Virus record (IMG/VR): IMGVR_UViG_2711768069_000014
DNA: 4,413 nucleotides
Source of the DNA: a virus
Lineage: Duplodnaviria; Heunggongvirae; Uroviricota; Caudoviricetes
Strand: one strand, 5' to 3'
The position numbers and the translations under genes were made by a program. Below the pieces are notes generated by a model. That model ran no database searches. It was not told where the DNA came from and worked only from the letters and a program-made list of their open reading frames with translations. This document shows, piece by piece, positions 3,072 through 4,385 of this stretch; position 1 is the stretch's first letter; each line of letters begins with the position of its first letter.

Positions 3072-4385
3072 ATGACTGTAAAAATTTCTGGCGTGCTTAA
3101 AGATGGCACAGGAAAACCAGTACAGAACTGCACCATTGTGCTGAGGGCCAGACGAACCAGCAGCACGGTGGTGGTGAACACGGTGGCCTCTGAAAATCCG
3201 GATGAAGCCGGTCGTTACAGCATGGACGTTGAGTACGGTCAGTACAGCGTCATTCTGTTGGTGGAAGGATTCCCGCCGTCACATGCCGGGACCATCACCG
3301 TGTATGAAGATTCTCAACCCGGTACGCTGAATGATTTTCTCGGTGCCATGTCGGAGGATGACGTCCGGCCGGAGGCACTGCGTCGTTTTGAACTGATGGT
3401 GGAAGAAGCGGCGCGTCACGCTGAGGAGGCGAAGAAGAATGCCGGAGAGGCGGAGACGTCCGCGAGGAATGCCGGCATATCAGCCAGTCAGGCGGAAGCG
3501 AGCGCGGCAAATGCTGACACTTCAGCAGGGGAGGCATCGGAGTCAGCCCGGCAGGCGGCAGAAAGTGCAGCCGCTGCAAAGAAGTCAGAGGAAGCGTCCT
3601 CGTCCTCGGCCTCTGAGGCCGCTCAAAAAGCCAGTGAGTCATTACAAAGTGCAGCAGATGCTGAGTTGTCAAAAAAGACGGCAGAAAGTGCAGCCGGTAA
3701 TGCAGCCAGGGATGCAACGACCGCAACAGAAAAAGCCCGGGAGTCAGCAGAAAGCGCACAGTCAGCGGAACAAAGCAGGATAGCGGCGGAAGAAGCCGTA
3801 AACCGAATCCCGACCGTGGTGGGGCCTCCCGGGCCAAAGGGGGAACAGGGGCCCGCGGGTCCTCAGGGGCCGAAGGGAGATAAAGGAGAGCGTGGCGACA
3901 CCGGCCCGGCAGGGGCAACCGGTGAACGGGGACCGGCAGGTGATGCTGGTCCGGCAGGCCCGCAGGGGCCGAAAGGTGACATGGGAGAGCGGGGAGAGAC
4001 CGGTCTGACGGGAAATGCAGGTCCACAGGGTCCAAAGGGAGATACCGGTGCGGCAGGCCCGGCAGGCCCACAGGGACCGAAAGGAGAAACAGGTGCGGCT
4101 GGCCCGGTGGGGGCAACCGGACCTCAGGGACCGAAGGGCGACCCGGGGGAGACACAAATACGGTTCCGTCTGGGGCCGGGAAACATTATTGAGACAAACA
4201 GCAATGGCTGGTTCCCGGATACAGATGGCGCACTCATCACCGGACTGACCTTTCTTGACCCCAAAGATGCCACACGGGTTCAGGGGTTTTTTCAGCATTT
4301 GCAGGTCAGGTTTGGTGACGGGCCGTGGCAGGATGTTAAGGGGCTGGATGAAGTGGGCAGTGATACAGGCAGAACAGGAGAATGA
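3072..4385 (+). CDS. stf: Side tail fibre protein (lambda Stf-like N-terminal domain, Ala/Ser/Glu-rich linker, collagen-like Gly-X-Y domain, ~78-aa C-terminal region), 437 aa
   Basis: ATG at 3072 preceded by GGTGGA (3061-3066). The N-terminus [22 protein letters not shown]...[16 protein letters not shown]...[25 protein letters not shown] closely resembles the lambda Stf (orf-401) N-terminus as I recall it. This is followed by a low-complexity A/S/E-rich segment and 36 consecutive G-X-Y triplets. Stop TGA at 4383-4385. Confidence 0.88.
3370..3815 (+). other. Ala/Ser/Glu-rich low-complexity (probably alpha-helical / coiled-coil) linker-coding region of stf
   Basis: Translation is dominated by A, S, E, K, Q (for example [61 protein letters not shown]). 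It contains an 18-bp perfect direct repeat CGGCAGAAAGTGCAGCCG at 3556-3573 and 3679-3696, in frame. Confidence 0.6.
3822..4151 (+). repeat. Collagen-like Gly-X-Y repeat-coding tract within stf (36 uninterrupted triplets)
   Basis: Translation reads [110 protein letters not shown]. The G-P-Q-G-P-K-G-(D/E) unit recurs five times, with imperfect DNA-level repeats. Confidence 0.85.

Follow-up and report, generated by a model that had tools for sequence, protein, structure and literature searches.

The Gly-X-Y tract of a probable EPclA-type side tail fibre gene in a lambda-like Escherichia coli prophage

Genes and features of the locus

The window, by which we mean the whole stretch of DNA analysed here, has a length of 4,413 nucleotides and comes from the Caudoviricetes record IMGVR_UViG_2711768069_000014. 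The genes, the protein domains and one hairpin are as follows; the direct repeats are given together with the length variants below.

7..2250, + strand: J, central tail fibre / tip attachment protein, C-terminal 747 aa (Ig_J, Ig_J_second, Phage_Tail_Tip, Ig_GpJ_C)
2321..2920, + strand: lom, Ail/Lom outer-membrane protein gene (PF06316, E 3.8e-116)
3024..3063, + strand: terminator-like hairpin in the gap between lom and the fibre gene (13-bp stem with 7 GC pairs, then TTTTATT)
3072..4385, + strand: complete gene for the probable side tail fibre, EPclA architecture, 437 aa plus stop (open reading frame list, Pfam)
3072..3470, + strand: PfN domain, aa 1-133 (PF08400, E 5e-68, full profile coverage)
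3474..3821, + strand: PCoil, a predicted trimeric alpha-helical coiled coil, Ala/Ser-rich, aa 135-250, 116 aa
3822..4154, + strand: Col, an uninterrupted (Gly-X-Y)37 run, aa 251-361, 111 aa (PF01391, E 3.5e-18)
4158..4349, + strand: PfC, C-terminal globular domain, aa 363-426, 64 aa (PF06820, E 4.8e-35)
4387..4413, + strand: next gene, first 9 codons (MNILKKLMQ), with its ATG 1 nt past the fibre stop codon

The fibre gene stands within the tail module that belongs to a lambdoid prophage, with lom directly upstream of it and, before lom, the C-terminus of gpJ, as the counterpart of J is annotated in the matching loci. The position of lom is the same as in lambda, and the order J-lom-fibre is found in the window, in prophage Sp14 of Sakai and in strain 493/89, matching the J-lom-stf order of lambda. 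The open reading frame at 3072-4385 carries PF08400, PF01391 and PF06820, all in one frame, and matches PHROG 366 'tail fiber protein' with an E value of 6.8e-147. Its first 93 residues make up a collar/anchor domain that matches chain Ta of PDB 9e7m, which is gpStfN of Ur-lambda (E 4.8e-50), and over aa 1-117 the protein has 87% identity to lambda orf-401. The J-lom-stf position, the PfN domain and these two matches are all in accordance with the side tail fibre gene proposed by the initial annotation, which had been made from the letters of the window.

The hairpin is a hit of a consensus scan and is a pattern match only. Lying just 5' of the fibre gene, it is a point against the fibre-gene reading; late phage transcription is usually antiterminated.

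The fibre gene is common in E. coli. By megablast, the gene is matched over its full length (80% or more of it) in 693 of 5426 complete E. coli genomes. The highest identity of the fibre gene among the 5426 is 98.9%, and the window is identical to none of them. O157-type genomes among them have up to 16 matching places each. The same search program finds the gene in 141 phage records at an identity of about 96%, and these are mostly Stx1- and Stx2-converting phages. Related prophages have type III secretion effector cargo (nleC, espJ, tccP) near the fibre locus, and in a related locus the tfa gene downstream of the fibre is a frameshifted remnant.

The gene beginning at 4387 is seen in full in related loci, where it encodes an 89-aa stand-alone PfC-domain protein (8300-8569 in locus L001; ECs_2716 in Sakai). 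This small protein matches PF06820 with an E value of 6.9e-36 and has 35% identity to the fibre's own PfC. Such a stand-alone paralogue lies directly 3' of the fibre gene in all loci examined.

The collagen tract and its reading frame

In the Gly-X-Y tract, Gly is in register at all 37 triplets, and the tract consists of 18% Pro and 21% charged residues, a composition compatible with a stable helix, as was to be checked for triple-helix propensity. The PF01391 score is 65.6 bits against a cut-off of 27.2. In a PDB search, solved collagen chains match this part of the protein, and BclA and a hyaluronidase are among the matches. The initial annotation had counted 36 consecutive triplets at 3822-4151; the uninterrupted in-frame run is indeed there, and translation gives a true number of 37 with the end at 4154, the lower count being due to an interval that stops 3 nt early and thereby cuts the last triplet (GET).

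The X position is occupied by Pro in 48.6% of the triplets (18/37), by Asp or Glu in 35.1% (13/37) and by Ala in 10.8%, and the Y position by Lys or Arg in 27.0%, Ala in 24.3%, Thr in 21.6%, Gln in 16.2% and Pro in 5%, with Asp and Glu at 0%. Thus the tract is rich in Pro at X as first described, and Lys and Gln are likewise found at Y, but the Asp and Glu that had also been assigned to Y actually sit at X. The preferences published for EPclP are similar (X: Pro 48.1, D/E 35.6; Y: K/R 31.0, A 21.2, T 20.2, Q 14.5; PMC3368898), and the commonest triplets of the tract, namely GPK, GPQ, GPA, GER and GET, agree with the published EPclP as well.

A chance origin of the run is excluded. Among 20,000 shuffles of the residues of the protein, the longest period-3 run of Gly is 8, compared with the 37 observed, and at the Gly frequency outside the tract (7.7%) a run of 37 triplets has a probability of about 5e-42.

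The reading frame is clear from several sides. The tract lies between PF08400 (aa 1-133) and PF06820 (aa 363-426), both of them read in the Gly-X-Y frame, and the other two frames of the tract interval have no Gly-X-Y pattern, one of them containing stops. Nucleotide differences from ECs2717, the Sakai homologue discussed below, fall on codon positions 1, 2 and 3 in the numbers 7/14/39 overall and 0/3/11 in the tract; for a second homologue the numbers are 6/8/35 overall and 0/2/8 in the tract, and in neither comparison does any substitution hit a Gly. The excess at third codon positions (7/14/39) points to purifying selection on the Gly-X-Y frame.

EPclA, lambda Stf and other collagen-like proteins

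The EPclA family was described by Ghosh et al. in 2012 (PLoS One 7:e37872; PMC3368898), and its commonest entries, with 437 aa, a PCoil of 116 and a Col of 111, come from the prophages of O157:H7 EDL933 and Sakai (Table 2, PMC3368898). The representative ECs2717 (ECs_2717, in prophage Sp14 of O157:H7 Sakai) has 95.4% aa identity to the product of the window gene and shares with it the length of 437 aa, the layout PfN-PCoil(116)-Col(111)-PfC, the motif GP(Q/P)-GPK-G(D/E), the X/Y preferences and the context of J, lom, fibre and small open reading frame. The two differ by 20 aa substitutions with no architectural change, and the three in Col (Q259P, A280V and M304R, relative to ECs2717) are all at Y. 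We therefore consider it very probable that the interval codes for the collagen triple helix in a side tail fibre of the EPclA type, belonging to a lambda-like E. coli prophage of the Stx-phage type. The window gene is an ordinary copy of a published family, so the observation is correct and has been known since 2012; it is not new, since the EPclA family was described and tested in that year.

What is known of the folded protein comes from recombinant EPclA cloned from O157:H7 Sakai, which is a trimer that dissociates when denatured (PMC3368898). Its circular dichroism shows a collagen triple helix with a Tm of 42 C together with an alpha-helical coiled coil with a Tm of about 52 C, and rotary-shadowing electron microscopy shows a dumbbell, with a thick PCoil stalk (about 14-16 nm) and a thin Col stalk (about 28-30 nm) connected by a hinge (PMC3368898). 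The calculated length of the present tract, 111 x 0.29 nm = 32 nm, agrees with this thin stalk. In addition, PfC trimerises alone and renucleates the triple helix after melting (PMC3368898). The expectation that the tract forms a trimeric triple helix setting the shaft length is therefore well placed, having been measured on the EPclA architecture, with the window protein 95.4% identical to ECs2717; at this identity to the EPclA representative, the window allele too would probably form a trimer with a triple helix.

The role as a tail fibre is, according to Ghosh et al., strongly suggested, short of proven, and some copies of EPclA are frameshifted (EPclA* in their Table 2; PMC3368898). In the literature that we searched, there was no work on a receptor of EPclA or on its presence in virions, and no later functional study. 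We infer that the window protein is a side tail fibre and present in virions.

The side tail fibre of lambda is the nearest system for comparison at the N-terminal end. The Ur-lambda Stf (P03764; collar in PDB 9e7m/9mgh) has in common with the window protein the collar/PfN domain, an Ala/Ser-rich coiled coil and a position after J and lom, and it is trimeric, as is the EPclA fibre. With compositional adjustment off, the alignment to lambda Stf extends over 260 aa at 58% identity and takes in both the anchor and the coiled coil; the similarity stops before the collagen tract, and lambda orf-314 gives no match. The coiled coil of the window protein has 37 Ala, 22 Ser and 16 Glu among its 116 residues and only 8 of Leu, Ile and Val together, in agreement with the PCoil of EPclA, a low-complexity segment rich in Ala and Ser in which Leu, Ile and Val are almost absent (PMC3368898). 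In contrast, features of lambda Stf's own are a long coiled coil, a hinge and a gp37-like distal domain, as well as an OmpC-binding tip in need of Tfa (PMC12617516). Lambda Stf also has Pf2 repeats; Pfam finds no Pf2 (PF03406) in the window protein, whose distal half consists of collagen and the 64-aa PfC instead. A lambda-type Stf is rejected by this domain content. Between 19650 and 21973 in lambda, an interval that covers the two halves of the frameshifted stf gene, no run of at least four Gly-X-Y triplets occurs in any frame, as the initial annotation had stated of lambda Stf, and collagen goes unmentioned in the Ur-lambda paper (PMC12617516). The annotation went further in calling the shaft a different module on a lambda-like anchor; this is true of the anchor and of the distal collagen and PfC, but not of the Ala/Ser-rich coiled coil, which is common to lambda.

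By cryo-EM of Ur-lambda (2025), the collar domains of four Stf trimers dock on gpV/gpM at the tail tip, and each trimer has three collar domains with flexible linkers to the fibre (PMC12617516). By analogy, the collar domain of the window protein would dock on the tail tip in like manner. At the other end, PfC is at a guess the candidate receptor-binding tip of the fibre. A PDB search with the window protein gives matches restricted to the collar and collagen regions and none for PfC, and an AF2 model of PfC (alignment of 18 sequences, 92-99% identical) is too poor to use, with a mean pLDDT of 53 and a pTM of 0.41.

Collagen is also carried by EPclB and by the EPclD-type fibres. EPclB (933W/Sp5, Z1483/ECs1228), from short-tailed Stx phages, has PfN, PCoil, Col, PfC and the collagen style in common with the window protein, and is a 'tail-spike protein' proposed to bind YaeT (PMC3368898). 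The window protein differs from it in having one Col and no Pf2, and EPclB is rejected on these grounds, namely the single Col run and the absence of PF03406. The EPclD-type proteins of Shigella and E. coli (for example P0073-P0108 of our homologues) share the anchor, coiled coil and collagen, with 34-38 or 9 triplets in the examples seen, but end in PF13884, the peptidase S74 intramolecular chaperone, and not in PfC. With its PfC C-terminus, the window protein is not of the EPclD type by domain content.

Gram-positive bacteria and their phages have collagen-like proteins as well, namely Scl1/Scl2, BclA, the hyaluronidase HylP and the receptor-binding proteins of Streptococcus thermophilus phages. 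Their triple helices likewise lack hydroxyproline and are nucleated by a globular domain that trimerises beside the tract, and the repeat number varies between strains. These proteins have a Thr/Gln-rich Y position and less Pro at X (Table 4, PMC3368898). They also differ from the window protein in their flanking domains, the homology being confined to the Gly-X-Y tract.

Length variation, rival explanations and the proposed working of the fibre

The direct repeats of the fibre gene, which are needed for the comparison of length variants, are the following.

3553..3696, + strand: two 21-nt direct repeats in the coiled-coil region, 20/21 identical, 123 nt apart
3858..4141, + strand: span of six imperfect direct copies of the 23-nt unit GGNCCNCAGGGNCCGAARGGNGA, encoding GPQGPKG[D/E] (repeat search)
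3858, 3867, 3957, 4020, 4065 and 4119, + strand: starts of the six 23-nt copies
4017..4107, + strand: two tandem copies of a 45-nt unit of 5 triplets (TRF: period 45, 2.0 copies, 84% match)

Among the best 120 cluster representatives of the protein search, the number of Gly-X-Y triplets varies from 4 to 38, and the flanks are 92-99% identical. The counts seen in these 120 are 4, 5, 8, 9, 10, 14, 15, 16, 19, 20, 21, 22, 25, 26, 27, 28, 32, 33, 34, 35, 36, 37 and 38. A single-deletion model fitted to every PfC-bearing homologue separates 19 different deletion classes, between 3 and 99 aa in size, and each of them is a multiple of 3 aa (9 nt) and keeps the register. The majority of the junctions lie on the repeats. 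Exactly one 45-nt unit (15 aa) is absent from the 32-triplet form (P0012 and P0041), the 8-triplet form has copies 1 and 6 of the 23-nt unit at its junction, and in the 19-triplet form the copies so joined are 1 and 4. In the coiled coil, a 41-aa deletion in homologues P0002-P0006 is bracketed exactly by the two 21-nt repeats. The recurrent loss of 41 aa is no multiple of seven.

Taking the window as a stand-in for the ancestor, and counting cluster representatives, which are not independent events, we find junctions with at least 20 nt of mismatch-tolerant homology in 13 of the 19 classes, compared with 9.9% expected from all possible in-register deletions of the window tract (binomial P 1.3e-9). 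The exact microhomology at the junctions in window DNA is 0-11 nt, and it is short owing to synonymous differences among the copies of the repeat; the mismatch-tolerant extension is 20-59 nt and is the only measure that separates the junctions from the null, for which reason slippage and homeologous recombination between prophage copies are indistinguishable here. These results support repeat-mediated deletion as the probable source of the Col length variation, the mutational mechanism being read from the junctions. The initial annotation had anticipated both that the length varies between related prophages and that the repetitive DNA is prone to slippage or recombination; the former is seen in the in-register forms of 4-38 triplets with junctions enriched in direct repeats, and the latter is suggested by the 13 of 19 junctions in repeats. 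That Col differs in length by steps of three residues had been published in 2012 (PMC3368898), and the junction statistics are a new but minor addition.

With these data at hand, other explanations of the tract can be weighed. The one that comes nearest to a serious rival is that the gene has lost its function and is a relic of a defective prophage, with a tract kept only by gene conversion among the many prophage copies of a genome and a change of length that is neutral decay. The many matching places in O157-type genomes (up to 16), the several frameshifted copies (EPclA*, PMC3368898), the frameshifted tfa downstream in related loci and the very short variants of 4-9 triplets would all suit such a relic. 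However, the open reading frame is intact, the substitutions are mostly at third codon positions with none at Gly, 19/19 indel classes keep the triplet register, and 141 sequenced phage genomes carry the gene, among them those of inducible Stx-converting phages. These four points speak for a functional gene family, and we hold the relic to be improbable. Less probable still is a role of the protein for the lysogen, as a bacterial surface adhesin or virulence factor of collagen-like make in the manner of Scl1/Scl2 or BclA. Collagen-like proteins of pathogens do bind host matrix and cells, BclA turns up when the collagen part is compared with the PDB, and lom, a lysogen-expressed outer-membrane protein, adjoins the gene, with nleC, espJ and tccP nearby in related prophages; Ghosh et al. 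also allow a role of EPclP for E. coli itself (PMC3368898). Against this, the N-terminus is the collar domain of lambda Stf and by eye has no obvious signal peptide or anchoring motif, the gene occupies the stf position of a tail module, and the reported expression is tied to phage induction (PMC3368898).

To the idea that repetitive GC-rich DNA produces the Gly-X-Y pattern incidentally, with the real product in another frame or on the other strand, we give next to no probability. There are indeed a 286-aa minus-strand open reading frame at 3295-4155 and plus-strand ones at 3439-3783 and 4015-4248, but overlapping open reading frames are expected where a biased repeat has no stop codons. Besides, the Pfam domains on both sides are in the Gly-X-Y frame, the substitution pattern fits this frame only, the indels are multiples of 9 nt, and the protein of this frame has been expressed and characterised (PMC3368898). 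A product of an alternative frame or of the opposite strand is therefore rejected by domains, substitution pattern and indel register. The same evidence (Pfam flanks, substitutions and the register of the indels) bears on the doubt raised at the outset, that the register might be broken or the region translated in another frame: neither is seen.

Returning to the EPclA-type side tail fibre, we propose the following working. Three chains would make one fibre, in which PfC trimerises and nucleates the (Gly-X-Y)37 tract, and the tract would then fold into a collagen triple helix of about 30-32 nm without hydroxyproline, thought to be stabilised by Pro at X and by charge pairs of Asp/Glu (X) with Lys/Arg (Y). 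The 116-aa Ala/Ser-rich segment would form a trimeric coiled coil of about 16 nm, with a flexible hinge between it and the collagen rod, and the three PfN collar domains would hold the fibre at the tail tip in the way seen in Ur-lambda, from which the docking geometry is borrowed. A collar-anchored fibre with a coiled coil and a collagen helix suggests that the collagen rod acts as a spacer. This spacer would be thin and stiff and would keep PfC, as a small knob, at a distance of about 50 nm from the tail, where the knob, alone or with a partner protein, may make the first contact with the cell surface and perhaps bind the receptor. Recombination or slippage between the imperfect direct repeats would remove or add whole triplets, giving fibres of 4 to 38.

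A further step is to regard the collagen tract as a selected, rapidly adjustable spacer and the 89-aa PfC paralogue as a partner of the fibre; this joint reading may hold, and we consider it unlikely as it stands. If it were true, repeat-mediated changes in triplet number (4-38, about 3-33 nm) would adapt the reach of PfC to O-antigen or capsule layers of varying thickness, and fibre length would be a determinant of host range. The conserved 89-aa paralogue, possibly translationally coupled, would then cap the PfC trimer, serve as its template or provide the actual binding surface, replacing Tfa. Both ideas, spacer tuning and the paralogue as partner, are absent from the 2012 description.

As a discovery the tract is of little weight, the family, its collagen nature, the dumbbell trimer and the variable Col length having been published in 2012. 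The small additions made here are the repeat-linked deletion junctions, the recurrent 41-aa deletion in the coiled coil and the stand-alone PfC paralogue. The EPclA-type fibres are of wider concern as parts of phages that spread Shiga toxin and type III secretion effectors, and their hydroxyproline-free, thermally stable triple helix is of interest to collagen engineers. In addition, the Tm of EPclA is cited in a 2025 paper on collagen folding.

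A stand-alone PfC gene behind the fibre gene

The EPclA-type fibre gene is closely followed by another reading frame, of which the window holds the start:

4387-4413 (+), start of the next gene, its ATG lying 1 nt past the fibre stop (TGAcATG)

In related loci, the gene 3' of the fibre encodes an 89-aa protein (8300-8569 in L001, the locus of strain 493/89; 5828-6097, ECs_2716, in L003, that of E. coli O157:H7 Sakai prophage Sp14), which opens with a 27-aa Cys-rich leader, MNILRKLMERLCGCGKHDDCEHGQSLT, and continues as a stand-alone PfC domain (PF06820, E 6.9e-36), with 35% identity to the fibre's own PfC. 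Annotations call the protein 'hypothetical' or, under phrog_576, 'tail fiber C-terminal domain'. The paper of 2012 that describes the EPclA family (Ghosh et al., PMC3368898) does not mention it, as far as a word search shows. The 89-aa PfC protein, whose gene sits where lambda carries tfa, could help to assemble the fibre tip as a partner or could cap it.

Beyond this pair of genes, the related prophages carry a tfa-like tail assembly gene, reduced to a frameshifted remnant, and after it type III secretion (T3SS) effector cargo. In strain 493/89 the cargo is nleC; in Sakai Sp14 it is tccP and espJ:

L001 8570-8647 and 8999-9985, tfa-like remnant and effector cargo regions
L003 3711-5702, tfa-like remnant and effector cargo region

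Since the remnant and the effector genes follow the fibre module, the region 3' of it appears to be an insertion site for cargo (morons).

Features around and within the fibre gene

Upstream, lom and the fibre gene are separated by a strong terminator-like hairpin, which may keep lom expression in the lysogen apart from the late-transcribed fibre gene:

3024-3063, hairpin with a 13-bp stem, 7 GC pairs and a T-run

Within the gene, the coiled coil (PCoil) is shorter by exactly 41 aa in several homologues (P0002-P0006, P0041, P0058, P0062 and others), and the gap is flanked by direct repeats:

3553-3696, two 21-nt direct repeats, 123 nt apart, PCoil region

PCoil length differences are reported to be multiples of seven (PMC3368898); the 41-aa gap does not follow this rule, while further variants lacking 63 aa or 28 aa do.

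Long ORFs of up to 286 aa, on the plus as well as the minus strand, also overlap the sequence that codes for the coiled coil and the collagen tract:

3295-4155 (-)
3762-4388 (-)
3439-3783 (+)
4015-4248 (+)

We reject these as genes; the simplest account is that they are by-products of a biased, repetitive codon usage in which stop codons are few.

Database records of related fibres

In the assembly of E. coli strain D1, the fibre gene's best match (98.9%; H1 and H2) is present on the chromosome and again on a separate record of 91.6 kb, which suggests a prophage copy that is extrachromosomal or was assembled separately. Among the homologues, P0090, a 486-aa PfN-Col-S74 protein with 85% identity to the window protein (the aligned part being 79% of the query), is labelled by NCBI 'collagen-like surface-anchored protein SclE [Streptococcus pneumoniae]'; almost certainly, this record is contamination or a misassigned Escherichia/Shigella prophage sequence, with a misleading name transfer as well.
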